Counted from the stretch's first letter, positions 1,034 to 52,767 are shown. The stretch: DNA of 57,479 nucleotides from an uncultured Myxococcota bacterium (GCA_965661045.1 CBFICN010000003.1:1-57479), one strand, 5' to 3'. Notes: generated by a model from the sequence alone, not told the origin. A program made the numbers and translations.

Positions 1034-2353
1034 TTATTTGAGTGGCTCAATCTTGACTTTGAGAACACTGTTTTTCGAGTATTGCGTGCAATCCACACCA
1101 GAAATGGTCACCGGTGTAATTTGGTTGAACAGTGCTGTGTGGGTATCTGTGGTGGTGGTGGCTCGTAGGTAATTCTGTGTATAGCCTCGCCACTGTAAGC
1201 GTGGACCGGAATCCGTATTGACGGTTTGAGCATCTCTTTCCCAGAGGACAGAATCCACTTTGCCTATGTGTGCAGCCGCGAACTGTTCTTTTGAGCGTTC
1301 CACAATGGGCTTTATGCGTTGAATTCGGGCTCGGATATCTGCTTTTGAGAGTTTTTTGGACATCCTAGAGGCGGGGGTGCCTGCGCGATCGGAGTACGAA
1401 AATAGGTGCATGTCTCCAAAGCCAATCCGCTCGACGGTCTCAATGGTTTCTTGAAACTCAGCTTCTGTTTCACCGGGGAAACCAACGATGAGATCCGATG
1501 TGATATTGAACAAGGGGGTGTGTGCCCTGGCTTGCTCGACCAATCCCTCGTAACTTTCAACTGAGCAGCGACGAATCATTCGTCTCAATATCGTATTGGA
1601 CCCCGATTGCAGTGGTAGGTGCAGGTGGGGGCACATTCTTGGATTGTCCCACAGACTGATGAAGCCTTCTGGAAAGTCCCACGGTTCTAAAGACCCTATT
1701 CTCACTCTGGGTACATCGGTGTCCTTCAAAATGGCTTCAATCAAGGATCGCAGGTTTTCACCGGTGTCGGACCCGTATCCTCCTAGGTGTACCCCTGCGA
1801 GAACAACTTCCTGATACCCGTCACTGTGTAAAGATCGAATGTTCTCGACGACGTCCGCAATAGAGATGGAGCGTTCGGCCCCACGCGCAGTGCTCACAAT
1901 ACAAAAAGAACACCGATTGTGGCATCCATCTTGAACCTTGACAAAGGCCCGCGTTCTAGTTTGTGCGAAAGCGGGTTGGGCATCTGCAGACTCTGCCAAG
2001 ACTGGCATATCATTGCCCCAAGCAGAGACAATCTTTTCAGCCATGCTGGCCTTGTCTGCATTGGAAACGACCATGTCGACGTGCAACTGATTGGCGATGG
2101 TGTCTTGGGCAAGTGTCGCGTAGCAGCCAGTGGCAACCAGTTTTGCACTTGGGTTGCTTTTGTGAAGGTCTCGCAATCTCTTCTTTGACTTTCTGGTCGC
2201 CTCGTTGGTGACAGCACAGGTGTTGACTGCCATGACGTGCGCATCGCTGGCCGATTGAACGACGGTGTGTCCCATACTGTGAAACTGTCGTTGCCATGAA
2301 GCCTGTTCAGCCTCATTGAGTCGACACCCTAAGAATTCTAAGTAAACATTCAT
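1034..2353 (-). CDS. mtaB: Radical-SAM methylthiotransferase of the MiaB/RimO/MtaB family, MtaB-like
   Basis: 439 aa. N-terminal UPF0004 motif LGCRLNEAE, radical SAM CHNRCSFCIV (CxxxCxxC), C-terminal TRAM-like region. The MtaB versus MiaB assignment is by N-terminal motif resemblance only. Confidence 0.8.
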   Translation of the reverse strand: MNVYLEFLGCRLNEAEQASWQRQFHSMGHTVVQSASDAHVMAVNTCAVTNEATRKSKKRLRDLHKSNPSAKLVATGCYATLAQDTIANQLHVDMVVSNADKASMAEKIVSAWGNDMPVLAESADAQPAFAQTRTRAFVKVQDGCHNRCSFCIVSTARGAERSISIADVVENIRSLHSDGYQEVVLAGVHLGGYGSDTGENLRSLIEAILKDTDVPRVRIGSLEPWDFPEGFISLWDNPRMCPHLHLPLQSGSNTILRRMIRRCSVESYEGLVEQARAHTPLFNITSDLIVGFPGETEAEFQETIETVERIGFGDMHLFSYSDRAGTPASRMSKKLSKADIRARIQRIKPIVERSKEQFAAAHIGKVDSVLWERDAQTVNTDSGPRLQWRGYTQNYLRATTTTDTHTALFNQITPVTISGVDCTQYSKNSVLKVKIEPLK

Positions 2354-21218: not shown

Positions 21219-21827
21219 ATGGAACTGTCTGCATGGCTGTCAATCGCTTCAATTTGTGCAATGGGGGCAATGTCCCCAGGCCCAAGTTTGGCTGTGGTCA
21301 TTCGCAATACCATCGCCGGAGGGCGTGTACAGGGAGCGTTGACCGGTATTGGACATGCACTGGGAATTGGGTTGTATGCATTGGTGGCTGTGGTCGGCAT
21401 GTCGTTTGTACTACAACAGGTTCCACAAGCAATGTTGTTCGTAGAGGTTTTGGGTGGCGCATACTTGATTTGGATGGGGAGCAAAGCCATTCAGCATGCC
21501 GGTGAAGGAAACATGAAATCGGATGAAAGCATGCTTCATCGAGGGTTTATCGACGGATTGGCCATTTCGGGACTCAATCCGAAAACTGCTGTGTTCTTTC
21601 TAGCACTGTTGGGGCCCTTGATTCCGCCCGAAGCCAGTAATATGGAGCGCACTGGAGTTGCTGGGTTGGCGTTGACGATCGATGCCTGTTGGTATGTGTT
21701 TGTTGCGATGATGCTTGTGCAAACAGGGGCAGTGGAGTGGTTGGCTAAGCAAGGACAGTGGGTCGACCGTTCGCTTGGATTGTTGTTAATTTTTGTGGGG
21801 CTTTGGTTGTGGATTGGACTGGTGTGA
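21219..21827 (+). CDS. LysE/RhtB-family amino-acid exporter
   Basis: 202 aa, 6 TM. N-terminal SPGPSLAVVI and NPKTAVFFLAL motifs are typical of the LysE family. Confidence 0.8.
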   Translation: MELSAWLSIASICAMGAMSPGPSLAVVIRNTIAGGRVQGALTGIGHALGIGLYALVAVVGMSFVLQQVPQAMLFVEVLGGAYLIWMGSKAIQHAGEGNMKSDESMLHRGFIDGLAISGLNPKTAVFFLALLGPLIPPEASNMERTGVAGLALTIDACWYVFVAMMLVQTGAVEWLAKQGQWVDRSLGLLLIFVGLWLWIGLV

Positions 21828-21848
21828 GAGCCTCTCCGCCGTTCATGA

Positions 21849-23867
21849 TTACCGCGACAATATGTGTGTCTGTTGGTTGTTTCGTGCTCTTCTTCGGTAA
21901 AATGAGTCCATGTACAAGATGTGTGGAAAAGTGATACAGGACCCCGCAATGATGATCCATCCTAAATGAAAGGGCTGTAGAGAGAGTGTCAGTACAAAGA
22001 TTGCACAAAAGAGAAATGCCCCAATCGTCAACGGCAATGCTTCTTGCCACATGGATCGATCAGATAGGGTGATGGCTTCTTTGAGGTGGGTCCACGCTTC
22101 CAAACTGTGTTGCCCAATAAAGTATAGACCGAATGCCATAGGGAGTGGCAACCATGCCGATGCCCACAAAGAGATCGTGGACAAGAACAACTGCACTGAA
22201 CGTGTTTTGAATAGCAAACCCACTTGTAGGAATGCCATGGACAACAACCAGCCAATGGAATTCTGCAGTGGTAGGCTAGAGTGTACCGACAGCAGTTCAA
22301 CAACAATCTGACTGTCTTCAGGATGAGACAGGATGATCCATCCCAACACCGATAGTCCCCATAGAAAAATAGACACTGTATGCTCCGGCAGTTTCCAATG
22401 CTGAAAGTCCGTTTGGCCAAAATGCCAAGCTGAGGTGAGTACAAATACCCCCAAACCAACAGTTGGACTGAGTAGCCACAGTACTGCCATACTTGCAATT
22501 AAACCCCAATAGCGCATGTGAAATGACCCATTCCATCTGGAGACACCTTGTTCGCCAACGGTATGATAATCCAAAGCTCCATGGGGTATGCCAATCGCCA
22601 GCATACCAAGTCCCAACAACACCCAGCCAGCATAGCCAGTATAAATGGGAAACAGTTGGTATAGGACGATCAATACACTCGTTGTCATCAGCAATAGGAT
22701 TGAGGGAGTAAAAAGACGTCTTTGAATTAGAGCCTGTAAAAAAGGTGTCCAAGGCAATCCAGCAAAAATTTCGATCTCTTCCCAAATACTTGTCTGTTGT
22801 CGAAGAAATTTGAGAACTCTGGCAAGCTGTTGGCTTCGAAAAAGTTCTTTAAAGATGTCCTTGCCCAAGTGTGGTTTTGTCATCAAAATGTGAATGAGTA
22901 GATCGTCGTAAAATGTGAATCGTGGCTGGGGGGTAATTGTGGGTTGTCGATCTAGATCCATACAAATTTCTGTTGCGTGTTCGTACATGGTTTCAAACGC
23001 GTAGCCCGTACTGGGTTTGACGGCACCAGCGCGAGATCCAATAGACAGACAATTGGGTAGAGAGGATGGAGTACTCGAATGGATTGACATTGAGATGATG
23101 CCCCGTTCTGTGTTCAGAACCGTAAATGAACCCCATTTTTTCTGTATGTAGTGTTCGAGGTGTTGCTCAGCTCTTTTGGTCTCGATGGGAGCAATTCCAA
23201 ATCGAGTGCACTCAACCAAAGCACGCGTTGAACTTTCCGGAAGAATGTACATAAATTGTGTGGCATCATCCTGTGGAATATCAAAATCCATCAGGGTCAA
23301 AGTGTCCTCTTGGATGTTGGGTTCTGAAAGTTCGATAAAGAATCCAACGAAGGATTGAAGCAACCCTCTTGAAGAATTTGTTGAAGAGGCAAGGGGACGG
23401 CCATCAAAAACTTGTTGGCTGATGATGGTTGTATTGGCAGTATCAATGCGCAAAGACTTGGAGCCTTCTATTGCATCAATCTTTTCTACACTGTCTCGAA
23501 GGATTTGAATGCCATGTTGTCTACACAATCGAGTTGTGGAATCAAACAGTTTTTGACTCTCAATTTGGTAATATTGATTGGGGGCAATGCATTGTTTTGG
23601 AAGTGGAGGTACTTCGGCAAATTTCCAGTGCCGTTGTATGACATCTTGATGCTCCAAGACAATGGGATCGGTCGGAGATGCCCAAAAACACAATGTTTTG
23701 GGTGTGTGTTTGTGTGTTGGCTCCACAATTAATATAGAGTACTGGCTCAAGATCCCACGTCGTTCGAACGCTCGTAGAATCAAGCAAGCTGCGATGCCCA
23801 ATCCACAAAATACAAAATCGTACTCCGGAAGCAAGTCCTGATGAGATGTGGCCTTCGAGGTTGACAT
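21849..23867 (-). CDS. Fusion protein: lycopene beta-cyclase (CrtY/CrtL-type, N-terminal) + beta-carotene 15,15'-dioxygenase (Brp/Blh-type, C-terminal)
   Basis: N-terminal part (about 22712..23867): FAD fold YDFVFCGLGIAAC, FMYILPESSTRALVECTRF, GSRAGAVKPSTGYAF. C-terminal part (about 21852..22711): 7-TM Blh with GIPHGALDY, SAWHFGQTDF, YFIGQHSLEAW. One uninterrupted frame. I prefer the ATG 23867 start because the GTG at 23909 lies inside the upstream terminator stem. Confidence 0.85.
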   Translation of the reverse strand: MSTSKATSHQDLLPEYDFVFCGLGIAACLILRAFERRGILSQYSILIVEPTHKHTPKTLCFWASPTDPIVLEHQDVIQRHWKFAEVPPLPKQCIAPNQYYQIESQKLFDSTTRLCRQHGIQILRDSVEKIDAIEGSKSLRIDTANTTIISQQVFDGRPLASSTNSSRGLLQSFVGFFIELSEPNIQEDTLTLMDFDIPQDDATQFMYILPESSTRALVECTRFGIAPIETKRAEQHLEHYIQKKWGSFTVLNTERGIISMSIHSSTPSSLPNCLSIGSRAGAVKPSTGYAFETMYEHATEICMDLDRQPTITPQPRFTFYDDLLIHILMTKPHLGKDIFKELFRSQQLARVLKFLRQQTSIWEEIEIFAGLPWTPFLQALIQRRLFTPSILLLMTTSVLIVLYQLFPIYTGYAGWVLLGLGMLAIGIPHGALDYHTVGEQGVSRWNGSFHMRYWGLIASMAVLWLLSPTVGLGVFVLTSAWHFGQTDFQHWKLPEHTVSIFLWGLSVLGWIILSHPEDSQIVVELLSVHSSLPLQNSIGWLLSMAFLQVGLLFKTRSVQLFLSTISLWASAWLPLPMAFGLYFIGQHSLEAWTHLKEAITLSDRSMWQEALPLTIGAFLFCAIFVLTLSLQPFHLGWIIIAGSCITFPHILYMDSFYRRRARNNQQTHILSR

Positions 23868-23892
23868 GGAAGTCCATTGCTGAGTGACGTTG

Positions 23893-23927
23893 AGAAAAAA
23901 GAAAACCACCCCAAATGGAGTGGTTTT
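23893..23927 (-). terminator. Rho-independent terminator between the rhodopsin gene and the crtY-blh fusion
   Basis: Minus-strand RNA AAAACCACUCC-AUUU-GGGGUGGUUUU, an 11-bp stem including one G.U with a 4-nt loop, followed by CUUUUUUCU. It starts 18 nt after the rhodopsin TAA. Confidence 0.8.
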
Positions 23928-23945
23928 GTGAAGAACGAGTTCAGA

Positions 23946-24680
23946 TTATGCTGCTTGTTGTGCGCGAATCTTTTCACTCTCTGCTTTGGCAACGCTGTAT
24001 ACTACGAGACCGAATCCAATCTTGTTGATTGCGTCTGCAATGTTGTATACGATGTTCATTTCAAACATACCGGCCATCCAGTTGTCTGGCATAGTCATGT
24101 AACCAATCGGGTAGATAGACCATCCCAATGTGATGAAGATACCCAACAAGAACATGGCTTGCTTCAACTCAGGAGAGTCACTGGACTGAGAAAGTTTGCG
24201 TACGTCGCCAGCGAATACTTCGTATACGATGTAGGCGTAACCGATTGTTGAAATGAATCCCCAAAGGACAGAGCCACCACCGAGGATTGCAGCTTCACCA
24301 ATGTATCCGGTGACCAACATCCAAACAGAAGCAACGATCAACTTGAAGAGTGTGCTGCCTTTCGCGCCGAATGGTTTTGTGAGAAGATAGAATTCAACAC
24401 ACATCAATGGTACAGTCAAAATCCAGTCGATGTAACGGAATGCTGTGGGAGAAGTTCCAGTTTGAATCCAGAAGTCACGCATGTAGTAGTAGTGCACGCA
24501 TGCAATTCCAGTAATCAACGCAGATACAGTCAATGACAGACGCCACTTACCTTCTACAGAGTTGCGCTCCAGCAAAAAGAATGCTGTTGCAGCCATCATG
24601 GCCATTGTGCCGATGAAAAATGTGAAACCAGTGTAATCTTCTGTTCCAAGATTGCTGGCAGCCAGTAATAAGTTGTTCAT
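23946..24680 (-). CDS. Proteorhodopsin/xanthorhodopsin-type light-driven proton pump
   Basis: 244 aa, 7 TM. RYIDWILTVPLMCVEF gives the D-T-E motif (codons 24426..24428, 24414..24416, 24393..24395). His in CVHYYYM. Schiff-base Lys in YNIADAINKIGFG (24021..24023). GGAG RBS 7 nt upstream. Confidence 0.95.
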   Translation of the reverse strand: MNNLLLAASNLGTEDYTGFTFFIGTMAMMAATAFFLLERNSVEGKWRLSLTVSALITGIACVHYYYMRDFWIQTGTSPTAFRYIDWILTVPLMCVEFYLLTKPFGAKGSTLFKLIVASVWMLVTGYIGEAAILGGGSVLWGFISTIGYAYIVYEVFAGDVRKLSQSSDSPELKQAMFLLGIFITLGWSIYPIGYMTMPDNWMAGMFEMNIVYNIADAINKIGFGLVVYSVAKAESEKIRAQQAA

Positions 24681-24710
24681 GGTTTACTCCAATTTGAACC
24701 TGTTCATTAT

Positions 24711-24735
24711 CTATTCAAAAACGACTTTTGAATAG
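24711..24735. promoter_or_regulatory. Perfect 10-bp inverted repeat CTATTCAAAA-N5-TTTTGAATAG (candidate operator or 5'-UTR hairpin of the rhodopsin mRNA)
   Basis: Read directly from sequence, 31-55 nt upstream of the rhodopsin ATG. The half-site-like CTATTCAA recurs at 24826..24833. Confidence 0.5.
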
Positions 24736-24791
24736 TTAATTGTACAATATTGATTCTCATTGACCATATTTTAAAGAAGTATACAGCCAAA

Positions 24792-24823
24792 TTTCTGCAT
24801 TATTTGAATTTTAGATGCAGAAA
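24792..24823. promoter_or_regulatory. Perfect 9-bp inverted repeat TTTCTGCAT-N14-ATGCAGAAA
   Basis: Read directly from sequence in the divergent control region. Confidence 0.4.
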
Positions 24824-25157
24824 ACCTATTCAATGTATTCTGATGATGTGTTGGTATGTACGTATTTTTGGGATGATTGTACGTAAAGTATTAAACTCAC
24901 AAACTTGTTTTGTTGTATAAAGTTAATATATGCAAAATAATGCACTAATTTTTGAAAGAGTACGTTTAATCAGAAAAATGATCCATCATTTTATACTAGA
25001 CTTTAAATCAATACTGGGTCATCCTAATTTCTCTGCTGTGTTCGTCTCTGTCCCAAAAAAGACTATAAGACAATATAATGCCTATTCACTTTTCAAAATT
25101 GCAGTATGTATCATCTGGTTCAAGAAAAGAACTGAGCGATATGTTGGGAGAGCATCG

Positions 25158-26285
25158 ATGATGGCGGCTTTGTTTGCTCTTTGTTTGACGCCATTGTTGA
25201 TTGCAGTTGTCAATTTCTTGACTTGGTACAGGCCTGTTGGAAAAACACGTGACGCTTCAACGGCTCGCATTTCTGTGTTGATTCCCGTGCGAAACGAAGA
25301 ACACAATATTAGACAGTGCCTTGAACACGTCTATGATTCAGACACTGCTCCATTTGAAGTGATTGTCTACAATGACAACAGTACAGACGCAACCGCTGAA
25401 CAACTCAAAGCTATTCAAGTGCGGTACCCATCCTTGAAGGTTCTGCATGGAGCCGCTTTACCAATGGGTTGGGCCGGAAAGAACCACGCTTGTCATCAAC
25501 TTTCGAAAAGTGCTTCGGGAGACATTTTTGTTTTTTTGGATGCCGACACCAGGTTGATGTCTGGGTGCTTGCGTCACGTTCGGAGCATCGCCTATAGTCA
25601 AACATTGCCGTCTGATATGGTTTCTGTTCTGCCAAAGCAAACCATGCAGACCTTTTCTGAGCAATTGCTCATGCCCTTTCTACACCTTACCTTTGTGTCT
25701 TGGCTTCCACTCGAACTGGTGCGTCGATTGCCCTTTCCATCCATGACAGCCGCCATTGGTCAGGTCTTGGCTATTAAATCTGAGGCGTACAATCAATCGG
25801 GTGGTTTTGCTGCGATTCCAAATCAGTTGGTTGACGATATGGCATTGGCCACCCTATTCAAGAAGAATGGACAGACGGTGCGGTTTGTGGATGGGCACCA
25901 ACTCGTTTCTTGTCGTATGTATTCTTCTTTGTCTGACATTTGGCAAGGGTTTAGTAAAAATGTCTTTTTGGGCTTGAAGCAGAATATTTTCTTGTGGCTC
26001 TTTGTCATTGCATTGTACACACTCTGTTTTGTGCTCCCCTTTGTATTGCTGGCCTGTCTGCCGTTGTTGGAACCATCCATGGTTGGTTGGGTACTAGGGG
26101 GTGTTGGGGCGAATTACACGCTGAGGGTACTGCTGGCTCTTCGATATGAACAGTCCTGGTCGTCCGTTTTGTGTCATCCAATTGCCAGTGTGATCGCCAT
26201 CGGAATATTTTTCAACTCCGGACTGCAAACTTTAACCAAGGGTGTGGAGTGGAAAGGGCGCACCTATGGCAACGTCAAATCGTAG
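25158..26285 (+). CDS. Family-2 glycosyltransferase, CrtQ/CruC-like (carotenoid glycosyltransferase-like), membrane-embedded
   Basis: ATG 25158 after GGGAGAG; the upstream 76 codons of the ORF track are AT-rich non-coding. Motifs ISVLIPVRNEEHNI, VYNDNSTD, MGWAGKNHACHQ, FLDADT, C-terminal TM bundle ending VEWKGRTY. As I recall it, this is the same layout and terminal motif as Staphylococcus CrtQ. Confidence 0.7.
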   Translation: MMAALFALCLTPLLIAVVNFLTWYRPVGKTRDASTARISVLIPVRNEEHNIRQCLEHVYDSDTAPFEVIVYNDNSTDATAEQLKAIQVRYPSLKVLHGAALPMGWAGKNHACHQLSKSASGDIFVFLDADTRLMSGCLRHVRSIAYSQTLPSDMVSVLPKQTMQTFSEQLLMPFLHLTFVSWLPLELVRRLPFPSMTAAIGQVLAIKSEAYNQSGGFAAIPNQLVDDMALATLFKKNGQTVRFVDGHQLVSCRMYSSLSDIWQGFSKNVFLGLKQNIFLWLFVIALYTLCFVLPFVLLACLPLLEPSMVGWVLGGVGANYTLRVLLALRYEQSWSSVLCHPIASVIAIGIFFNSGLQTLTKGVEWKGRTYGNVKS

Positions 26286-27033
26286 ACACCCAATGGGAAA
26301 TCATTCTAAAGACGAGCGCGTACCGTTGTTTTATCGATTCATTCGATGGTTGATGGTGCGTAAACTTGGTCAGAATCTTGAGCAGGTATACATTCAGAAT
26401 CTTGAACAGGTTCAACACTTGCTCATCGAACAAAGCGTCATCATTGCCCCCAATCACGTGTGTTATTGGGATTCTTGCATGTATTTTTTGTTGAGTGGTT
26501 TGTTGGGACCACGTGCCTTTGTTTTGGTTGCCCAACAGACGCTGCGTCGATTGCCGTTTCTACGTTGGTGTGGGTCGATTCCCTTGAATACAGACTCCAA
26601 AGAGCAAGCCATTGCGCAATTGAAGGGGCTGTCCAATCTCAACACAGAGTCTACGCAGTTTTGGATTTTTCCGCAAGGGGAACACCGTCCGACTCAATGC
26701 ATGCCGTTGAAGTGTAAAAAAGGTGTGCTGCTGCTTGCCCAAGATTTGAAAATACCCATTGTTCCTATGTCCATTCAGTATTTGTATCGAAATTCTGAGC
26801 AACCTGTCGCCTATATCTCTTTTCAATCGTCACTATCGCACACTGTTGGTCTTAGCGAACTCGAACAGTCATTGAAGCAGGGGCTGGATGCATCCATACA
26901 GCATCATCTTGGTGAAGAAACACTGTCCTTTGTTCCATACTTTCCAGGGATTCAAGCTAGCCGAGATGATCTTCCAACCCGAATACTGGCTTGGTTTTCG
27001 GGCATGATTTTGGGTGATGTGTCCAAAAACTGA
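26266..27033 (+). CDS. PlsC/LPLAT-family acyltransferase
   Basis: HX4D motif APNHVCYWDS and FPQGEHRP (motif III). Overlaps the GT2 gene by 20 nt if ATG 26266 is used (GGAAAGGG RBS); alternative start ATG 26293. Confidence 0.75.
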   Translation: MATSNRRHPMGNHSKDERVPLFYRFIRWLMVRKLGQNLEQVYIQNLEQVQHLLIEQSVIIAPNHVCYWDSCMYFLLSGLLGPRAFVLVAQQTLRRLPFLRWCGSIPLNTDSKEQAIAQLKGLSNLNTESTQFWIFPQGEHRPTQCMPLKCKKGVLLLAQDLKIPIVPMSIQYLYRNSEQPVAYISFQSSLSHTVGLSELEQSLKQGLDASIQHHLGEETLSFVPYFPGIQASRDDLPTRILAWFSGMILGDVSKN

Positions 27034-27038
27034 TGCAA

Positions 27039-27067
27039 AGAAACCCAAACAAGCGTTTCTTAATTTT
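27039..27067 (+). terminator. Possible weak terminator between the convergent acyltransferase and iscX-like genes
   Basis: AGAAAC-N10-GTTTCT followed by TAATTTT. Short AT-rich stem. Confidence 0.3.
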
Positions 27068-27075
27068 CAGTGGCG

Positions 27076-27321
27076 TCATCGTTTTGAAAAATCGTATGGA
27101 TCGTCTGCGTCTGGATTGTCTTCTTTCCATTCTTCATACCAAATCATCTGAATGGCCTCGAGGTGCCCTTCAGTCGAAGCTTCAGGGTCTCCATCAAAAT
27201 CTTCCAGTGCCACAATCCAATCGTGTAATTCAGTGAACCGAATGGACAATGGGTGGATATCAGGCTTGAGATCGTAGAGTTCTTCAGCGATTTCGCGTGT
27301 GTTGTTCCAGTTGAGGGCCAT
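27076..27321 (-). CDS. iscX: IscX (YfhJ)-like Fe-S assembly accessory protein
   Basis: From ATG 27321: MALNWNNTREIAEELYDLKPDIHPLSIRFTELHDWIVALEDFDGDPEASTEGHLEAIQMIWYEEW, which closely parallels E. coli IscX (WTDSREIGEALYD...VRFTDMHQWI..LEDFDDDP...LEAI). The 60-codon upstream extension in the ORF track is rejected. Confidence 0.75.
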   Translation of the reverse strand: MALNWNNTREIAEELYDLKPDIHPLSIRFTELHDWIVALEDFDGDPEASTEGHLEAIQMIWYEEWKEDNPDADDPYDFSKR

Positions 27322-27393
27322 CTGTGCTCCAAGAGTTTTCAATGGTGTTAGTTTATATGAGAATATATCGACTTTGACCTGTCGGGAGTATCG

Positions 27394-28728
27394 ATGTCTG
27401 ATTTTTTTACCAATCCAGTGGTGCAAACAGTGTTTGGACTGGCTGTGTGCTTTGTCATCGCTTCTTGGTTGACCAGAATTCCCAAACTCAAGCAGTTGCA
27501 TTTGCCTTTGTCAATCGTAGCCGGAGCCGTAGGGGTACTTGCTCGGTATATAGATCCGACTTGGATGGATGTCGACGTACTCAAGACACTGGTTTATCAC
27601 GGATTGGCCTTGGTGTTCATCACGGTTGGGTTGCAGGTTCCACCACCCAACACCAAAACAAAGGAATCTCTCACCATTGGCTTTGCGATTTCTTCAATGG
27701 GTGCGATGCAAGGGTTTTTGGGCGCGACCGTGGTGATGTTGCTTTCCGCTTTGCAAGGCAGTCAATTGCATATCGGTTTGGGCCTACTGTTGCCACTTGG
27801 GTTCAATCAGGGACCAGGTCAAGCATTGTCGTTTGGACGGGTATGGGAGACGACTGGTTTGGAAAATGGGGCTGACATTGGCATCATCATTGCTGCGATG
27901 GGCTTTGTTTGGAGTGTGATCGTGGGGATCCCGTTGGTTGTGTACGGTCGTCAAAAAGGGTGGGTGGAACGTGATCTGGAGGGCTTGTCTTTTGACTCAG
28001 GTGTCACCGAGCAGACGGTCCCCAATTGGCTGAGTCGCCCAGAAACACTGAGCAACAGTGTGGCACTGGTGATTGGCACGTACTTTTTGACGTATGTACT
28101 GATTGATGGAGTCACCGAGCAGTTGGTGTCCAAACCCAAGATTGTCAACATGCTTTGGGGATTGCACTTTGTCATCGCGTTGTTCGTCGCGATGGGTATT
28201 CGACAAATGTTGCTTCGCTTCGTTGACGCTGATGGTGTAAAAGGGCACAATCAACGTCTCCAAGTGCTCAGCAATCTGACGGTGGATGTGACGACAGCAT
28301 CTGGATTGGTGGCCATTCAAGTTGCGGTGTTGTCTTCAAATTTGGGGGTGGTATTGTTGCTGACGACCTTGGGTGGTGTGGCGTCATTGGGCATGGCACT
28401 GGTTTTGTTTCGACGGGTGTTTGAACGATTGCCGTTTCACCACTTGGTTGTCTGGTTTGGTTCTTGTACCGGCACCTTTCCGATGGGGCTGTCGTTGTTG
28501 AGAATGATCGATCCCAACTTGAGTACCCCGTGTGCAACAAATTACTCTAAGGGTTCAGCATTTGCGTTGATCACATCGGCCCCTTTGTTGGTCTTGTTGG
28601 CCTACGCCATCGGTCAGTACCCCGACAATTACCCCAGTGCAGGATGGACTACGATGGGACTGTTGTTTGGGTATTGGATGTTCTTGCTGTTTGCCTGGCG
28701 TCGCATATGGGTCAAATCTTCAGATTGA
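27394..28728 (+). CDS. Sodium/glutamate symporter (GltS/ESS family)-like transporter
   Basis: 444 aa, about 12 TM, GGGAG RBS. Resembles GltS at LPLSIVAGAVGVL, GFNQGPGQALSFG and FGSCTGTFPMGLSLLRMI. Assigned by resemblance only. Confidence 0.5.
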   Translation: MSDFFTNPVVQTVFGLAVCFVIASWLTRIPKLKQLHLPLSIVAGAVGVLARYIDPTWMDVDVLKTLVYHGLALVFITVGLQVPPPNTKTKESLTIGFAISSMGAMQGFLGATVVMLLSALQGSQLHIGLGLLLPLGFNQGPGQALSFGRVWETTGLENGADIGIIIAAMGFVWSVIVGIPLVVYGRQKGWVERDLEGLSFDSGVTEQTVPNWLSRPETLSNSVALVIGTYFLTYVLIDGVTEQLVSKPKIVNMLWGLHFVIALFVAMGIRQMLLRFVDADGVKGHNQRLQVLSNLTVDVTTASGLVAIQVAVLSSNLGVVLLLTTLGGVASLGMALVLFRRVFERLPFHHLVVWFGSCTGTFPMGLSLLRMIDPNLSTPCATNYSKGSAFALITSAPLLVLLAYAIGQYPDNYPSAGWTTMGLLFGYWMFLLFAWRRIWVKSSD

Positions 28729-40856: not shown

Positions 40857-43800
40857 TTATTGATCCTCTTGAGCACGTTCGAGCGCTTCAATGATGGCGG
40901 GTCGCAACTGCTTAGCCTCAATAATTGCGTCGAGTGAACCAACATCAATTGCCCGTTGAACGCTGTGGATATTGTCAAACTCAGTTGCGATGATGCCACG
41001 TTTCTCCAACGTCAATGTAGTGAGCATTTTGTTGCGTTCTTCTAGCAAAAATGGTTTTTCTGCATTTCGGGCTTCTTGGATTCGCTTGTCCAGTTCGATC
41101 AAGCGTTCATCTTCATTGACCAGCGCTTTGACTTTTCGAGGGAATACGACCGCAGCAGCCGGTGCGCCTCCAATAACAGAGGCAAAGGAACCTTCGACTG
41201 CAATGGCCGTGATATTGGGGTTGAGTGCTTTGGAAAACACCACATAGGCCCCACCGTGATAGCGCCCAATCACGACGAAGACGATCGGTGATGCACAGTT
41301 GACCACTGCGCGTCCAATTTCCGCGCCGTACTCTAGTTGCAATCTGCGCAACGACTCGGGTGAACCATCAAACCCACTGAGATTGGCCAGTACCACGATC
41401 GGCGTTTGTCCACTGGCTGCATTGATGGCGCGCGCAATCTTTTTGGAACTTTGCGGAAATAGGGTACCCCCAGTCCAGGTGTCGGGGCCATCCAAGGGCA
41501 CTCGACCACGCCGCAAGATCGGTTGGGATTCAATTCCAATGACTGTGCTGGAAATCCCTCCAATGTGCGCAGACCACACAATGGCCGATTCTCCTTGGTG
41601 CAGTTGAGCAAAGCGTTCAAGATACTGACTGTCCTGATCAATCAGTGCTTGCATCACTTGACGAATGGCGAACGGCTTTTTTCGTTCTGGGTTGTGCTCT
41701 TTCGAAAAGATATCCCCAATCCGTTTGAAGTAGGGGTGATTCTCATCGGTATAGGGATGTAAGCACACATTTCTATTGGGAGAGTCATTGGTCAACTGTT
41801 TGGGAGATCGACCGGTTTGTGGGTCACAGAAGGTGTGTCGATAAATCTCAAACAAGAGGGCATAGGCCTCTCCCAAATCAGCAACTCGGTATTGGGATTG
41901 TCCGTTTGGTCCCATGATGCGCTCAACACCACCGATGCCACGCTCGTCTTCAGCAGAAACGCCCCCTGAAAAGTCCAGTGCCTTCTTCCCTGTGAGAACC
42001 ATGGCGGCTTGGGTTGTCATAATCAACACCCCTTTGGTGTGCATGAGCATCGTGGCTTCTGCATTCCAGTACGATTGCGCACCCACGTTGATTCCGTGTA
42101 CAATGACGTGAATGACCCCACCTGATTGGGTAAATTGGATGATTCGCTCCAGAACTCGGGCAGTCCAGTCAAGGTTTTCCGTACCGGAGTTCATGGATAT
42201 CATGGCCCCAGCCGAAACAGGGACCCACTCAACAGGAATGCTCAGTTCTAAAGCCAAATCAAGCGCCGCCATAATGCGAGAACACTCTTTTTCTGCCAGT
42301 GACCCCATCGCTTTCGTTGAGTCGGATCCAATCCAAATGCGTTGCATTCCTTGTGGAAATTTACTCGTGGTGTTGTTGATAATTCCTACAACGACACCAC
42401 AATTGTTTTGACCAAAGGGTCTCAACACTGGAACAAACTGACCACTGGAATTGAAGTCGTATTCTTGAAAACGACCGTTTCGCATGTCTGGATGTGGAAT
42501 GTTCAATGCGGTGGGAGACCCTTCAAGCATTCGAATGATTTCATATGGGTAGACGTGTCCAAACTTCTGGGCCCGTACGGCCTTCATATCATAGGTGGAC
42601 ATCGGTGGGATGGCCAGATGGTTGTCGAGCCAGTTGAATTCAAGCTGGTTGTTTCCTGACCGTCGGAGCTGAATGGTCGACCATTGGAATCGACTCGCCC
42701 GGGTTCGTAGGTGCAACTGAACTTCTCTAAGGTTTAAGCCACGCGTGTAGGGCTCTAACTGCTTGGCAAACAGTTGCAGCTCGGCTTCGTTGGTGTCCAA
42801 CTGGGGGTGGATGTGAAAGTAGAGCCAGTTCCACTGCAATCGTGATCGCTTTGTGCGTTGAGACTGTGTACTTCGGATCGCGCGAATGGCTTCAAAAAAT
42901 ACCCGTTCAAAGTGACGCAAGGGAAATGCTGCCCCTTCCGTGGAAGAGCCAAACACCTCGGCCAGCACAAAGATCCGTTCGTCTTTGGCATTGCTGTGGG
43001 CTTGTCCCAAAAACGCATAGATGTGTTCTTGTGAATAAATGCGAGACAGTTTGAACTCTTTGAGCCTTTCTAGTTTCAGTCGACTGGCAACTTGAGGGTG
43101 GATGTCGTTGAGCAAGGTTTGGAAGCGCCATTGTCCCTTTTGATAGACAAAGGTTCGATGGTGCGCCAGTTCGTTGTTCATCCAGGTCAGCGTGATGCGT
43201 TTGGGTTGAATCGGGAGTGTTGTCAGCAGGATGGGGGCTTGTTCAAGCCAAGACTCATCCAGTCCTTGGGGCAGTACAAATTCCAAATAGGTTGCCGGAT
43301 TGATCATCAGTTGCAAAATCTGTAGGATATTGTCTTTTGTGGTGTCGGGTTTGAACAGGATGGACAGGATGCGATCGGACTGGTTGATTTTCCCTTCGAC
43401 CAGAGCGTGCCCCTCTACCTCGGCATCATTTGTCCAAGTGTAGGTCTCCCCAATGTAAAAACGACGCGTCAGCGCTTCAATGATTCGGTGCGGTTGAGCG
43501 CCACTCTGCATTTGATACAGCGTTTGTTGGAGGGCTTGTGGTGATCGGCCAAGTTTCCGCATAACGGTGCGAACCACTTTGCTGTCGGCGTCGTAAGATT
43601 CCATACTCGAAAACATTTCCTGAACGGCTGCGGTTAGGGCTTCCATTTGTCGTCTGTTTTCACCGTGGGCAAAGAACAGGTGGTGGGCATGAATCGCATT
43701 GTCCTGTACATAAGGGTGGTCGGTGTGGGCCGCTTGACCTGTTTTTTCAAGGATGTCTTCAAGTTCTGCCGGTGGAGTCCAGTTGGTTTGGTGTAAGCGG

Positions 43801-46391
43801 ATTACAATGCGCAGCAGTCCAGACGCAACGTGGTGGCGCCAAGTGCTGTTGTCGTTTCCAAGGGCCAATCTAAATAGGGCTTCTTTTAGGTGGGTGTCAT
43901 TCGTTAAGGAGTCGATGTGGTACCAGTGCAAGGCTCTGTTCAACATTTCTTCAACGCATTCCAAGATATTGTCGTCGTGGTGTTGTCGACAGAAGTCATA
44001 AAAGGCTGCATTGGCTGGGATTGTGGTGGTGCTGTCCAGATCCAATAGCAGTGTCCGATCGAGCAATTGTGTAGCGTCCGAGAACATGGATAGGCATTCA
44101 ATAAATCGGTTCCAAATGTTGGGGTGCGCGCAGTCCGATACGGTTGCGGAACTGTCCAATATTTGATCCATCATGTCGCTCATGGTTGGCGTAATGTCAA
44201 AGCCAAGCATGGATGCTCGAAACAAAGCGTGCAACTCTTCCAACACTGTTTCTTGTACTGCGCCTTCGAGCGTATTCAAGCGACTGAGTTCAAGCCGACC
44301 TTCACTCCACAATTCTGCAAATAAAATGCGATTGGGACTTTCAAACCCTTGAGACTCCACACTTTGGTCACTGGATTCATCTTCCAAATCCAAGACGAGT
44401 AAGGCGTCCCCAATCAAGACCTGTTGATTGACTTGACATAGAATCTCTTGTACTGTTCCCGCTTCCGAAGCAAAGACGCCCAGTTCCATCTTCATCGCTT
44501 CAAGTGTACACAAACGATCACCGACGTTGACGGTGTCCCCAGGCGAGACGGAAACACTGACGATGACAGCGGGTGTTGGGGAGCGCACGACACCACCCGA
44601 AGAACGTTCAATGGTGTGGCTGTATCCATCCAATTCAACTGTAATACCAGCACTTCCATAGGAGTAGAGGATTTTATGCCGCTGTTCTCCTACCCACATT
44701 TCAGCAATGTGTGGCGAGATGGTTTTCAACTGAACGCGGTGCAGTTGTTGAGACACTTCCACCACAAAATCATCCATGTCCCAGGCGGCAACCGTCATTG
44801 AGTATTCCATTCCACGGAGCTTCAATTCTACCTCAAATCCTTCGTTGCTGGGGAACTGAACGGGGATACCATCTTGACACTGTTGAAAGAAGCGATCCAT
44901 GTTGACGTGGGTATTTCGCTTGTATTCTAATATTGCTGCTGCGAGAAGTGCTTGCTTTTCTGCGCCGACTCGAACCACAGAACCGGCTGCCATGGCTCGG
45001 TCTAGCCAGTCTGTAGCCGCCGTTGCGTTGACGAATTCTTCGTGTCGCAAAATGTCCAACAGGAAGGCTTGATTGGTTGCGCCATCTTCTACTGCGGCGT
45101 CGAGTTCCAAACAGGCTCTGCGTGCACGGGCAATGCACAATTTTCGCGTCGGTGCCCAAATGATGATTTTGGCAATCATGGAGTCGAAGTGTTCTGAGAT
45201 CGTGGATCCTTCCGTGATACCGCTGTCTACTCGAACACCTGGTCCAGCGGGCGCTCTAAAGATGGCGACGCGTCCTGGAGCTGGACGAAAATCTTGCTCA
45301 GGATCTTCGGCATTGACGCGCAACTCAATGGCGTGTCCATGCACCAATTTGGTGGGGGGAGACCATGTCCAACCTAGGGCTATGGATATTTGAGCTTGTA
45401 CCAAATCGGCACCCGTAATCGCCTCTGTGATGGTGTGCTCCACTTGCAGCCGTGAGTTCACTTCCAAAAATGTGGTGGTTCCACTATTGGGCTCATATAG
45501 AAATTCTGCTGTGGCGACGCCCTTGTATCCACACAGTCTTGCCAATTTCTCCGATGAACGCATCAGCAGTTCACCGACTTCGCTGGGAAGGATTGGGGAA
45601 GGGGCTTCTTCAATCACTTTTTGATTGCGTCGCTGAATGGAGCAGTCTCGGATACCAACGGCGTGTGCAGATGTGTCTGTACATACCAGTTGCACTTCGA
45701 TGTGTCTCGCTTGAGATACACATCGCTCCAGCAGAATTCCCCCTTGACCAAAGAATTTCTCGACTTCGCTGTGCACCGTTTGGACGGTTTCTGCCAACTG
45801 TTCTGGGGCGTTCACTTTGCGAATACCGCGACCACCACCACCTGCTGAGGCTTTGACCATCAGTGGATAGCCAATTCGATTTCCATGCTCAATGAGTTCC
45901 GCATCATTCCAATCGCTTTTGTATTCAGCCCAAGGAGCCAACGGAACCCCAGCTTTCTCCGCCATGTATTTTGCCGCGATTTTGTCTCCCAATTGACTCA
46001 TCGCCTTGGAGGATGGACCCAAGAATACAATATTGTTGGATTCAAGTTTTTCGACGAACAAGGGGTCTTCAGATACAAATCCCCATCCTGGCCAAACTGC
46101 ATCACAGTGATTGGCTTTGAGCAACGCCACAATCCAAGCGTGGTCTAAGTACGCATTGACAGTTTTTCCAGTGGGCAATGTACGCATGATACCACCGATG
46201 CAAATAGCTTCGTCGGCTTGGCGAACGAACGGCATGTGTTCATCTGGCTCTGTATAGAACGCCACCCCTTTGATCGAGGTTCCATGGATTAAGTTGAATT
46301 CCTCGAGGGCTCGAAGAAATCGAACCGCGGGCTCTCCACGATTGATGATGGCAACTTTGGAAAATAACTGTGTCTGCATTGGACTCCCCAT
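40857..46391 (-). CDS. Single-chain multidomain biotin-dependent carboxylase, eukaryote-type acetyl-CoA carboxylase architecture (BC - BCCP - central region - CT)
   Basis: 1844 aa. Biotin carboxylase (VAIINRGEPAVRF, MVKASAGGGGRGIRKV, EEAPSP, EVNSRLQVEHT), TDWLD linker, biotinylation motif CTLEAMKMEL (Lys codon 44490..44492). Roughly 480-aa middle region. Carboxyltransferase (VVVGIINNTTSKFPQG, GARIG-like region, LANLSGFDGSPESL, GRYHGGAYVVF). Confidence 0.9.
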   Translation of the reverse strand: MGSPMQTQLFSKVAIINRGEPAVRFLRALEEFNLIHGTSIKGVAFYTEPDEHMPFVRQADEAICIGGIMRTLPTGKTVNAYLDHAWIVALLKANHCDAVWPGWGFVSEDPLFVEKLESNNIVFLGPSSKAMSQLGDKIAAKYMAEKAGVPLAPWAEYKSDWNDAELIEHGNRIGYPLMVKASAGGGGRGIRKVNAPEQLAETVQTVHSEVEKFFGQGGILLERCVSQARHIEVQLVCTDTSAHAVGIRDCSIQRRNQKVIEEAPSPILPSEVGELLMRSSEKLARLCGYKGVATAEFLYEPNSGTTTFLEVNSRLQVEHTITEAITGADLVQAQISIALGWTWSPPTKLVHGHAIELRVNAEDPEQDFRPAPGRVAIFRAPAGPGVRVDSGITEGSTISEHFDSMIAKIIIWAPTRKLCIARARRACLELDAAVEDGATNQAFLLDILRHEEFVNATAATDWLDRAMAAGSVVRVGAEKQALLAAAILEYKRNTHVNMDRFFQQCQDGIPVQFPSNEGFEVELKLRGMEYSMTVAAWDMDDFVVEVSQQLHRVQLKTISPHIAEMWVGEQRHKILYSYGSAGITVELDGYSHTIERSSGGVVRSPTPAVIVSVSVSPGDTVNVGDRLCTLEAMKMELGVFASEAGTVQEILCQVNQQVLIGDALLVLDLEDESSDQSVESQGFESPNRILFAELWSEGRLELSRLNTLEGAVQETVLEELHALFRASMLGFDITPTMSDMMDQILDSSATVSDCAHPNIWNRFIECLSMFSDATQLLDRTLLLDLDSTTTIPANAAFYDFCRQHHDDNILECVEEMLNRALHWYHIDSLTNDTHLKEALFRLALGNDNSTWRHHVASGLLRIVIRLHQTNWTPPAELEDILEKTGQAAHTDHPYVQDNAIHAHHLFFAHGENRRQMEALTAAVQEMFSSMESYDADSKVVRTVMRKLGRSPQALQQTLYQMQSGAQPHRIIEALTRRFYIGETYTWTNDAEVEGHALVEGKINQSDRILSILFKPDTTKDNILQILQLMINPATYLEFVLPQGLDESWLEQAPILLTTLPIQPKRITLTWMNNELAHHRTFVYQKGQWRFQTLLNDIHPQVASRLKLERLKEFKLSRIYSQEHIYAFLGQAHSNAKDERIFVLAEVFGSSTEGAAFPLRHFERVFFEAIRAIRSTQSQRTKRSRLQWNWLYFHIHPQLDTNEAELQLFAKQLEPYTRGLNLREVQLHLRTRASRFQWSTIQLRRSGNNQLEFNWLDNHLAIPPMSTYDMKAVRAQKFGHVYPYEIIRMLEGSPTALNIPHPDMRNGRFQEYDFNSSGQFVPVLRPFGQNNCGVVVGIINNTTSKFPQGMQRIWIGSDSTKAMGSLAEKECSRIMAALDLALELSIPVEWVPVSAGAMISMNSGTENLDWTARVLERIIQFTQSGGVIHVIVHGINVGAQSYWNAEATMLMHTKGVLIMTTQAAMVLTGKKALDFSGGVSAEDERGIGGVERIMGPNGQSQYRVADLGEAYALLFEIYRHTFCDPQTGRSPKQLTNDSPNRNVCLHPYTDENHPYFKRIGDIFSKEHNPERKKPFAIRQVMQALIDQDSQYLERFAQLHQGESAIVWSAHIGGISSTVIGIESQPILRRGRVPLDGPDTWTGGTLFPQSSKKIARAINAASGQTPIVVLANLSGFDGSPESLRRLQLEYGAEIGRAVVNCASPIVFVVIGRYHGGAYVVFSKALNPNITAIAVEGSFASVIGGAPAAAVVFPRKVKALVNEDERLIELDKRIQEARNAEKPFLLEERNKMLTTLTLEKRGIIATEFDNIHSVQRAIDVGSLDAIIEAKQLRPAIIEALERAQEDQ

Positions 46392-51541: not shown

Positions 51542-52767
51542 ATATTTTCCTTGACCCAAGCAAGGGCACTTTCTTTGCTGTGTAATCTTTCGTGTAATTG
51601 TTCGGTTCGCACTTTGTCTATCCAAACACCAATGTCCGGACCTTTCAATCCAAGTGCAATCAAGTCTTTTCCAGAAATCAAACGTGGCAGTGGGGTGGTC
51701 AGTCCTCGGCTCAAAGCACTTTGTCTATTTTGTGCAGCGATTTCACCTTCAGTCCCTTCGACGATGGAGGCTACATCACACAGGAATTGGATGTCAAAAA
51801 TATCACTGCAGATATTTTGGGTGATGGTGCTGTGATCGGAGGTGAGCAAAGGGGTGGCAAGGTTGGTTCCCAGAATGGCCTCTTTGACTGGAAAGCCCAT
51901 GAAGCGTTCGATGCTCAGCGCGTCCAACAAAGCGAGTGTTTCGTCTTTTGAAAGAGGATGGGTCAACAGCGCTAAAAACAGTCCCATGCTGCGTCCAGGG
52001 TTGTTGGGGGCTCGAAGTCTGGCGCCCCGTCTGCAAGATTCAACGATGCACTCTTTATCTGCTTTGCTTAGCGAAGCGTATTGTGGAAAATAGTTGGGCA
52101 TTGCGTTGAGTTCAAACAGCCATTCAACTGCCACATGTGGTTCTGGACTTTTCATCCAAGCTTTTTGCAATTCAACCCACACGCGCTCTTTGGGAAGGCG
52201 TACAAAGTCTGGGTGTTGGACCAATGTATGACACAAGGTTTGGAGACTTGCATCCACAGTGCACGAAAGTCGACCGGCAAATTGACAGACTCGAAACACC
52301 CGCAACAAGTCTTGGGCAAAATATTTCACGTCTGTGGCCCGCAACACCTTGTTTTCTAAGTCGGTCAACCCATTGAAGGGGTCGACGAGTTGTTGCGTCT
52401 CTATGTGAATCAACATTGAATTGATGGTGAGGTCTCTTCTTCGACAGGCTTCCTCCACTCCCACAAAGGGCGTCGGTTCATCGAGCAGTTTTGGAAGTGC
52501 AACATCGACTTCGAGTTCATCACCGTGTTGAGGCAAGAGTTTCCACACCCCAAAACTTTTTCCGACCTTTCGAAAGGGGGGGAACCGATAGAGAATGTCT
52601 ACAAGTTGCTCCGTCGTCAACCCGTGGACTTCTACGTCAATGTCCTTGGAGTCAATTCCCAGTAGGTGGTCTCGAACACTTCCACCTGTCACATACACAT
52701 CTCCGCCGGCTTTGCTGACGGCCTTGGAGAAGTGCAGAACTTTGTCTGGCAGAGAAATTTCTGTCAT
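51529..52767 (-). CDS. cca: CCA-adding enzyme (tRNA nucleotidyltransferase, class II)
   Basis: 412 aa. VYVTGGSVRDHLLGIDSKDIDVEV, RRDLTINSM, C-terminal HD-like region. Confidence 0.85.
   Translation of the reverse strand: MTEISLPDKVLHFSKAVSKAGGDVYVTGGSVRDHLLGIDSKDIDVEVHGLTTEQLVDILYRFPPFRKVGKSFGVWKLLPQHGDELEVDVALPKLLDEPTPFVGVEEACRRRDLTINSMLIHIETQQLVDPFNGLTDLENKVLRATDVKYFAQDLLRVFRVCQFAGRLSCTVDASLQTLCHTLVQHPDFVRLPKERVWVELQKAWMKSPEPHVAVEWLFELNAMPNYFPQYASLSKADKECIVESCRRGARLRAPNNPGRSMGLFLALLTHPLSKDETLALLDALSIERFMGFPVKEAILGTNLATPLLTSDHSTITQNICSDIFDIQFLCDVASIVEGTEGEIAAQNRQSALSRGLTTPLPRLISGKDLIALGLKGPDIGVWIDKVRTEQLHERLHSKESALAWVKENICSP

Follow-up and report, generated by a model that had tools for sequence, protein, structure and literature searches.

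A predicted green-light proteorhodopsin with a fenestration glycine, next to a CrtY-Blh fusion in an apparently non-Bacteroidota genome

We analyzed a 57,479-nt stretch of DNA from an uncultured Myxococcota bacterium (hereafter, the window) and found a gene which its sequence assigns to the microbial (type-1) rhodopsins, and among these to the proteorhodopsin (PR) clade rather than to the xanthorhodopsin (XR) clade. The product is predicted to be an ordinary green-light proton-pumping proteorhodopsin of a subfamily typical of Bacteroidota. The explanation that we favor as a whole, and which we consider likely, is that of a green-type, light-driven outward proton pump with an opening at Gly141, which would be antenna-competent and would receive its retinal from CrtY-Blh. 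Antenna-bearing proteorhodopsins have been described before (Chazan et al.; Fujiwara et al.), and the gene mainly adds one member to them. Such antenna-bearing pumps broaden the light range usable by marine heterotrophs. The added value of this locus is modest and lies in its context: a Bacteroidota-type pump in an apparently non-Bacteroidota genome, together with a retinal fusion and a candidate tailoring pair.

Identity and key residues of the rhodopsin

The gene and the codons that matter for its function are the following:

23946..24680, minus strand: rhodopsin coding sequence, 244 aa, ATG start (open reading frame, PF01036, PDB matches, AlphaFold2 model)
24426..24428, minus strand: Asp85 codon, Schiff-base counter-ion and proton acceptor (BR D85, GPR D97, XR D96; by alignment, invariant in 128/128 relatives)
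24402..24404, minus strand: Met93 codon, spectral tuning site (GPR L105, BR L93, NM-R1 M95; by alignment, Met in 128/128 relatives)
24393..24395, minus strand: Glu96 codon, proton donor (GPR E108, XR E107, BR D96; by alignment, invariant in relatives)
24258..24260, minus strand: Gly141 codon, fenestration position (XR G156, Kin4B8 G153, GR G178, NM-R1 G142, BR W138, GPR Phe; by two alignments, Gly in 128/128)
24096..24101, minus strand: Tyr194-Met195 codons, helix F, with Met195 equivalent to NM-R1 M195 and XR M208 (by alignment)
24021..24023, minus strand: Lys220 codon, retinal Schiff-base lysine on helix G (BR K216, GPR K231; by alignment)

The open reading frame matches the Bac_rhodopsin family (PF01036) over residues 17-230 with an E value of 2.7e-41 and 141.9 bits against a cut-off of 24.6. 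Its best sequence matches in the PDB are 9JOV/9JOU (NM-R1; E 1.6e-72), with GPR at 2e-58, and HMMER bits against PDB sequences amount to 247 for NM-R1, 200 for GPR, 184-194 for BPR, 113 for XR and 98 for both GR and Kin4B8. In the alignment with 128 homologues, the query is 55% identical to NM-R1, 46% to GPR, 33% to XR, 31% to Kin4B8 and 26% to BR; identity to the XR clade (XR, GR, TR and Kin4B8) spans 31-34%. The AlphaFold2 model, built from a 48-sequence alignment (mean pLDDT 81.9, pTM 0.81), presents eight helical segments, seven long ones and a short one at 159-166. By fold, it comes closest to the zeaxanthin-bound NM-R1 structure 9JOU (TM 0.86/0.91, rmsd 2.0 Å), and matches 2-12 are GPR and BPR structures, such that the top 12 are all proteorhodopsins; XR reaches a TM of 0.77. 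Because bits, identities and fold matches all favor NM-R1 and GPR over XR, the gene is assigned to the PR clade, which settles a choice between the PR and XR clades that an earlier note on this DNA had posed. Membership of the xanthorhodopsin (XR/XLR) clade was ruled out by the 33% identity, by the lower bits and by the missing insertion between helices B and C (AAYALQNGMYQPTGE in XR), which the MAFFT alignment shows to be lacking in the query, NM-R1 and GPR.

Residues were assigned with MAFFT L-INS-i using reference sequences from PDB alignments, and the numbering was checked against published residues (XR G156, Kin4B8 G153, GR G178 and NM-R1 D87/T91/E98). The 273-aa XR sequence agreed with PDB 3DDL end to end with zero mismatches in the printed alignment. 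A second alignment combined the query and the references with 128 relatives of at least 65% identity. The proton-pump triad proposed by the earlier note was recovered on helix C within residues 82-97 (RYIDWILTVPLMCVEF), where D85, T89 and E96 align to GPR D97, T101 and E108 and are invariant in the relatives. Met93, eight residues past D85, falls in the GPR L105 column and is thus the green-type tuning residue that the same note had described; Met at this site is typical of Bacteroidota PRs. His63 corresponds to the counter-ion partner H75 of GPR and is His in 128/128 relatives as well as in GPR, NM-R1 and XR. Tyr194 aligns with the conserved helix-F tyrosine (XR Y207, Kin4B8 Y204). A sensor or other non-pump role was considered and ruled out: the protein retains both the His and a full DTE motif, and no transducer-family match was found among the scanned ORFs of the window.

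The fenestration residue was likewise located as claimed. A Gly codon had been placed at 24258..24260, and reading the ORF on the minus strand (24260..24258) gives the same coordinates for Gly141. In the MAFFT L-INS-i alignment, this residue shares its column with XR G156, Kin4B8 G153, GR G178, TR G152, NM-R1 G142 and BR W138, and the second alignment, with the 128 homologues, adds the Phe of GPR to the same column. The comparison with XR, Gloeobacter rhodopsin and GPR therefore places a Gly and no bulky residue at the XR-G156 site, opposite the Trp of BR in both alignments. The resemblance of helix E to XR had been drawn from a Salinibacter peptide, GLWGFLSTIPFVWILY, which proved correct against PDB 3DDL; the query equivalent (residues 137-153) reads SVLWGFISTIGYAYIVY, and the motif WGF(I/L)ST is near-identical between the two.

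Gly141 and Met93 are found in 128/128 relatives (at least 65% identity), and H63, R82, D216 and W140 are likewise invariant. The observation as a whole is far beyond chance. Since the combination of Gly and Met is invariant across these relatives, it is a clade trait, expected and not special to this gene: it was already known across the clade of Bacteroidota-type proteorhodopsins and does not amount to a discovery. The gene itself is under very strong purifying selection, because 47 of its 735 nt differ from the rhodopsin of a second strain (L086), 44 of them at third codon positions, with 0 amino-acid changes, and comparison with locus L001 shows 141 nt differences and 12 amino-acid changes.

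The putative carotenoid pocket and probable antenna competence

Fenestration requires a Gly at the XR-156 position, where Trp or Phe stands in many PRs and XRs (Chazan et al., bioRxiv 10.1101/2022.08.24.505090). In NM-R1, myxol and zeaxanthin bind via the fenestration; W139, L143, M195, W201 and Y202 hold the carotenoid ring, which Y194 also contacts (Fujiwara et al., bioRxiv 10.1101/2024.11.08.622755). According to the same study, "almost all" Bacteroidota PRs present Met at the tuning site (green-type) together with Gly at XR-156, and these PRs are stated to bind carotenoids. For NM-R1, energy transfer from myxol to retinal is reported, alongside a faster photocycle on carotenoid binding. 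These properties suggest, by homology and at the level of sequence, that the pump encoded in the window is very probably antenna-competent. The earlier note's suggestion that it "may be antenna-competent" thus gains support from a homologue solved with its carotenoid, but the trait is clade-wide rather than particular to this gene.

The pocket of the query is partly conserved. Among the NM-R1 ring contacts, Y194, M195 and W201 are kept and L143 is replaced by Phe142 (as XR F157); W139 and Y202 are altered to Val138 and Met202 (2/6 contacts counted as differing). In Kin4B8, Tyr204, Ser208 and Tyr209 matter for carotenoid binding, the S208A substitution cuts zeaxanthin binding to 2%, and, at the base of the pocket, a pair of residues is polar in pumps that bind hydroxy-carotenoids and hydrophobic in XR and GR (PMC12308411). 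Ungapped mapping, for which the loop alignment is uncertain, gives Pro198 and Asp199 as the query equivalents of S208 and Y209; by this mapping, Asp199 matches KR1 (T/D) and the Ser/Thr of the Kin4B8-208 position is missing. Beta-carotene itself does not bind to Kin4B8 (Chazan et al., bioRxiv 10.1101/2022.08.24.505090). The Gly is necessary but not sufficient, because ACB-G35 is fenestrated and yet does not bind a carotenoid (PMC12137139). The antenna would most likely be a ring-hydroxylated xanthophyll or a glycosylated derivative.

The analysis shows the identity and clade of the gene, its motif residues, the alignment of the Gly, the similarity in fold and the neighboring genes. From homology, we propose that the fenestration is open, that it binds a carotenoid of the kind named above and that energy passes to retinal, and the mechanism that we envision would operate as follows. 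Retinal would be bound to Lys220, and Asp85 would take the Schiff-base proton with the help of the PR-type His63; Glu96 would then re-protonate the Schiff base, and Met93 would set the green-type absorption maximum. Gly141 on helix E, in place of the bulky Trp of BR or Phe of GPR, would leave a lateral opening exposing the beta-ionone ring of retinal. As in NM-R1, a zeaxanthin or myxol ring could lodge there, facing helices E and F, passing blue excitation to retinal and accelerating the photocycle. CrtY-Blh, encoded directly downstream, would supply the retinal and might be reached by read-through of a terminator-like hairpin.

Gene neighborhood, host and alternative readings

The elements surrounding the rhodopsin gene are listed below:

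24687..24690, minus strand: GGAG ribosome-binding site, 6 nt before the ATG (read from the sequence; kept in L086)
24706..24740, no strand assigned: palindrome with 15-nt arms, a 5-nt gap and TTTTGAATAG half-sites (inverted repeat, 93% complementary)
24739..24766, minus strand: sigma-70-like promoter match TGGTCA-16-TACAAT upstream of the rhodopsin (consensus scan; both hexamers kept in L086)
23902..23927, minus strand: intrinsic-terminator-like hairpin, 11-bp stem and T-run, between the rhodopsin and crtY-blh (scan and folding)
21849..23867, minus strand: CrtY-Blh fusion of lycopene beta-cyclase and beta-carotene 15,15'-dioxygenase (Pfam, NCBIfam; alternative start GTG 23909)
25155..26285, plus strand: GT2 glycosyltransferase, HpnB/CruG-like, candidate CruC-like carotenoid glycosyltransferase, divergent from the rhodopsin (PF00535)
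26242..27033, plus strand: PlsC-type acyltransferase, candidate CruD-like (PF01553, 1.7e-15)

The promoter match is weak on its own because the sigma-70-like consensus scan yielded 3 sites against 4.0 expected. The palindrome sits between this promoter-like site and the ribosome-binding site and was kept in L086 while the surrounding intergenic DNA diverged; it may represent an operator or a 5'-UTR hairpin. The hairpin downstream of the rhodopsin has a folding energy of -17.9 kcal/mol (z -4.47), and 0/200 shuffles were as stable.

The called CrtY-Blh product is 672 aa long and matches PF05834 (1.8e-38), PF15461 (2.6e-30) and TIGR03753 (121.8 bits against a cut-off of 95.25). It is predicted to make retinal from lycopene. 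Both domains were found in all of the at least 120 proteins among the matches listed, most of which are 660-690 aa long, and by this measure the fusion architecture is common. A CrtY-Blh match was present at 64 of 86 rhodopsin loci, mostly from GTDB Bacteroidota, and adjoined the rhodopsin in the rows inspected: at related loci, crtY/blh usually follows the rhodopsin. The nearest named CrtY-Blh among the matches listed belongs to a Myxococcota MAG (40% identity). Other CrtY-Blh relatives with 46-73% identity (L102-L105) lie on short contigs, where no rhodopsin was found among the called neighboring genes.

Several observations bear on the host. Named matches to MtaB (1034..2353) range from 47 to 56% identity and come from Proteobacteria, Myxococcota and Chloroflexi MAGs and from Cocleimonas, the best reaching 56% in a Proteobacteria MAG and 52% in a Myxococcota MAG; no Bacteroidota were found among the named MtaB matches. 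The GTDB scan with the rhodopsin returned only relatives from Bacteroidota and Balneolaceae, with at most 70% identity, and two closer relatives (P0018 and P0031, 71-74%) lie near genes with T9SS sorting domains, which are a Bacteroidota marker. The cassette (21.8-27 kb) has a GC content of 44-47% against 49-52% in its flanks. The rhodopsins of L001-L005 are 95% identical in protein and only 81% in DNA, their contexts are unrelated, and the window presents no synteny with these loci beyond the rhodopsin itself. The host thus appears not to be a member of the Bacteroidota, and the MtaB and CrtY-Blh matches, the low GC of the cassette and the occurrence of 95%-identical rhodopsins in unrelated contexts suggest that the Bacteroidota-type proteorhodopsin was acquired horizontally. 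Shine-Dalgarno motif usage (9/28 genes against a background of 12.5%) was uninformative on the host.

The two divergent genes next to the rhodopsin form one operon, with the acyltransferase ORF overlapping the GT2 stop by 44 nt. The start of GT2 was placed at ~25155 because frame-breaking indels relative to L086 lie upstream of this position. The best NCBIfam models for GT2 are HpnB (147.9 bits, cut-off 379) and CruG (114.1 bits, cut-off 600), both below cut-off, and no CruC or CruD model was found among the NCBIfam matches of the GT2/acyltransferase neighbors. GT2 relatives in the metagenome scan reach at most 35% identity and two of them are full-length. The better one (L087, 35%) has the same NCBIfam profile as the window GT2. 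It is flanked by a PF01553 acyltransferase on one side and a CruF-type hydratase on the other, and its operon also includes CrtB, a lycopene cyclase, a photolyase and two CrtI/D-type oxidases; the acyltransferase of this operon is 21% identical to that of the window (E 7e-8). The other (L088) has no carotenoid genes in its surroundings. The adjacency of GT2 and rhodopsin is kept in the second strain L086, and the pair was absent beside the rhodopsin at ~85 related loci. The motif TTTTGAAWAG was observed near both divergent promoter-like sites, from which the pattern itself was derived; as evidence of co-regulation it was rejected, since 10/100 shuffles reach the count.

A retinal-only green pump would need no antenna at all: in this apparently non-Bacteroidota host, the Gly could simply be inherited and the host might make, or place in the pump, no fitting xanthophyll. 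This reading would account for Gly and Met being invariant across the clade and therefore saying nothing specific about the host, and for the departure of Val138, Met202 and, in the ungapped mapping, Pro198 from proven binders; ACB-G35, in which fenestration without binding is documented (PMC12137139), offers a precedent. It also agrees with our search of the scanned window ORFs, which detected no carotenoid hydroxylase or ketolase (crtZ/W/O), no crtE/B/I and no cruF/CrtC hydratase, although that search is confined to this part of the genome, and candidate carotenoid-tailoring genes lie next door. Moreover, a Gly found in 128/128 relatives under strong purifying selection suggests functional constraint, and the Gly-bearing proteorhodopsins reported as tested (NM-R1, KR1 and EinA29G6) bound xanthophylls. 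We regard a retinal-only pump as unlikely. It could also be that a carotenoid is bound mainly for structure or kinetics, through oligomer stability, a faster photocycle or photoprotection, rather than for light harvesting. The accelerated photocycle of NM-R1 is consistent with such a role, as is Kin4B8, which binds salinixanthin without energy transfer and for which transfer from salinixanthin and 4-keto carotenoids is little or none; however, myxol-to-retinal transfer was detected besides the kinetic effect in NM-R1, the closest homologue, and we judge a mainly structural or kinetic role very improbable.

A further possibility is that the antenna is a native carotenoid acyl-glycoside made by the adjacent CruC/CruD-like pair, with pump, retinal synthesis and tailoring acquired horizontally as one cassette. 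Such a pump would parallel xanthorhodopsin with its salinixanthin, although it belongs to the proteorhodopsin clade. The route proposed for salinixanthin has CruC attaching glucose and CruD a fatty acid (PMC5822342), and the overlapping GT2 and PF01553 genes that diverge from the rhodopsin, the best scores of GT2 against HpnB and CruG, the carotenoid operon around its L087 relative, the adjacency kept in L086, the TTTTGAAWAG motif near both promoter-like sites and the cassette GC below that of the flanks are all consistent with this scenario. However, the NCBIfam scores are far below cut-off (CruG 114 against 600, HpnB 148 against 379), the acyltransferases of the window and L087 are only 21% identical, the motif count is not significant, the window shows no CruF/CrtC hydratase, ketolase or hydroxylase, and Kin4B8 binds salinixanthin without energy transfer. 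Because L088 lacks a carotenoid context and the pair is absent from ~85 related loci, the link between this pair and an acyl-glycoside antenna is a lead and not a finding. We consider an acyl-glycoside antenna from a transferred cassette quite unlikely. The chances appear slimmer still for the full scenario, in which a non-Bacteroidota marine host acquired a Bacteroidota-type fenestrated PR whose gene is linked both to CrtY-Blh and to a CruC/CruD-like pair, co-regulated with it and responsible for the antenna. If true, this would constitute a self-contained, transferable cassette of pump, chromophore and antenna, and the first acyl-glycoside antenna in a proteorhodopsin-clade pump. If the pair does make the antenna, pump and antenna tailoring could move together between phyla, and the pair would point to a concrete candidate pigment.

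Comparison with known systems

The closest known system is NM-R1 of Nonlabens marinus S1-08 (9JOU, zeaxanthin-bound; 9JOV, same sequence; a complex with myxol has also been reported), which belongs to the same clade with 52-55% identity and is the best match of the query both by sequence (9JOV/9JOU) and by fold (9JOU). The two proteins have in common the DTE motif, the Met tuning residue, the fenestration Gly and Y194/M195/W201, and they differ at W139, L143, Y202 and G146, which are Val, Phe, Met and Thr in the query. In contrast to NM-R1, the query is apparently not from a Bacteroidota host and has a GT2/acyltransferase pair in its neighborhood. Homologues from Algoriphagus, Cyclobacterium, Belliella and Balneolaceae show 65-70% identity with invariant Gly and Met, and the Bacteroidota and Balneolaceae loci also present a rhodopsin followed by crtY and/or blh, sometimes fused. 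Unlike these relatives, the query lineage (at least 86% identity) was found only in marine metagenomes, in contexts without Bacteroidota markers. P0018 and P0031 (71-74% identity; P0018, from a MAG, 74%) also depart from the query in that their blh is convergent and unfused.

GPR (2L6X, 7B03, 8CQC) is likewise a PR-clade pump, with 46% identity and equivalents of D97/T101/E108, H75 and K231. It differs from the query by Leu at position 105, and it is not fenestrated, as the site holds a bulky Phe and shows a two-residue difference. XR of Salinibacter ruber (3DDL, salinixanthin) shares several pocket positions with the query (G156=G141, F157=F142, T160=T145, Y207=Y194 and M208=M195), and next to the query lies the type of GT2/acyltransferase pair that has been proposed to make salinixanthin. 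The differences are nevertheless substantial: 33% identity, a TM of 0.77 against 0.86 for NM-R1, a Leu tuning residue where the query has Met, and a pocket bottom of Met/Ala where the ungapped mapping gives Pro/Asp for the query. Finally, Kin4B8 (7YTB, 8I2Z) and KR1/EinA29G6, which are xanthophyll-binding pumps (Chazan et al.), resemble the query in the fenestration Gly and the conserved Tyr. Kin4B8 belongs to the XR family (31% identity). In the ungapped mapping, the Ser/Thr at the Kin4B8-208 position would be Pro in the query, and the query would have an acidic residue at the Kin4B8-209 position, as KR1 does (Asp).

Rhodopsin conservation and the intergenic palindrome

We compared the rhodopsin gene (23946..24680) with its counterpart in L086, a locus of a second strain (L086:771-1505), and found that the two encode identical proteins although they differ at 47 nucleotides, 44 of which are third codon positions. 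The intergenic and GT2 DNA beside the gene is far more diverged between the two loci than the rhodopsin gene itself. Judging from these substitutions, the rhodopsin gene is under extreme purifying selection. Despite the divergence of the intergenic DNA, one palindrome is kept in L086, and a third copy of its half-site lies nearer the GT2 operon:

24706..24740, palindrome with 15-nt arms and TTTTGAATAG half-sites, between the rhodopsin promoter-like site and RBS
25084..25098, third half-site, overlapping the GT2 operon's promoter-like site

It is possible that these elements, which are not statistically significant, constitute a shared operator of rhodopsin and the GT2 operon.

Genes adjoining rhodopsin in the window and in related loci

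The rhodopsin gene lies between the following features:

25155..27033 (+), GT2 glycosyltransferase and PlsC-type acyltransferase, overlapping genes divergent from rhodopsin
21849..23909 (-), CrtY-Blh fusion (lycopene beta-cyclase and Brp/Blh beta-carotene dioxygenase in one ORF), directly downstream of rhodopsin

The long ORF call for the GT2 gene spans 451 aa from an ATG at 24930. Because the segment 24930..25154 contains frame-breaking indels relative to L086, whose own GT2 gene call begins at the equivalent of 25155, the longer call is probably over-extended across this segment. A GT2 relative with 35% identity, found in the metagenome locus L087, is flanked by an acyltransferase and a CruF-like hydratase inside a carotenoid operon. 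This placement suggests that the window pair might have a CruC/CruD-like role in the synthesis of a carotenoid acyl-glycoside. Among the related loci compared with the proteins of the L087 operon, only L083, on a contig of a Flavobacteriales MAG, has more than one match adjoining its rhodopsin (L083:2677-8125), the matches being to CrtB, a cyclase, a CruF-like protein and two CrtI/D-type oxidases.

The CrtY and Blh domains occur together in all 120 relatives among the matches listed (mostly 660-690 aa), the closest named ones being a Myxococcota MAG (40%) and a Bacteroidota MAG (36%). The rhodopsins of loci L001-L005 (L001:10001-10735) share 95% protein and 81% DNA identity with the window rhodopsin in a wholly different gene context, with a 595-aa protein without family match upstream. 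The gene directly downstream encodes a PF01553 acyltransferase of 396 aa that has a long C-terminal extension. Here too, then, a rhodopsin adjoins an acyltransferase; the latter gave no BLASTP match to the window acyltransferase at E <= 0.01.

Host lineage and origin of the cassette

The named relatives of one housekeeping gene were compared:

1034..2353 (-), MtaB

Bacteroidota were absent among them, the best being a Proteobacteria MAG (56%) followed by a Myxococcota MAG (52%). The rhodopsin, unlike these relatives, is Bacteroidota-type and was probably acquired horizontally. The GC content of the rhodopsin cassette (21500..27500) is 44-47%, falling to ~38-40% around the intergenic region, against 49-52% in the flanks, a difference in composition that hints weakly at a foreign origin. 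Of the ~45 window ORFs scanned, 19 had no Pfam match, and the host belongs to a poorly characterised lineage.

Proteins with eukaryotic parallels elsewhere in the window

Two further regions encode proteins with eukaryotic parallels:

52764..56392 (-), bifunctional 6-phosphofructo-2-kinase/fructose-2,6-bisphosphatase-type protein (PF01591 and His_Phos_1), adjoining a Suv3-like DEXQ helicase
40857..46391 (-), single 1844-aa polypeptide with biotin carboxylase and biotin carrier domains and a weak carboxyltransferase-type match (E 8e-12)

Proteins of the 6-phosphofructo-2-kinase/fructose-2,6-bisphosphatase type and Suv3-like helicases are familiar chiefly from eukaryotes, and the architecture of the 1844-aa protein is that of a eukaryote-like single-chain acyl-CoA carboxylase.
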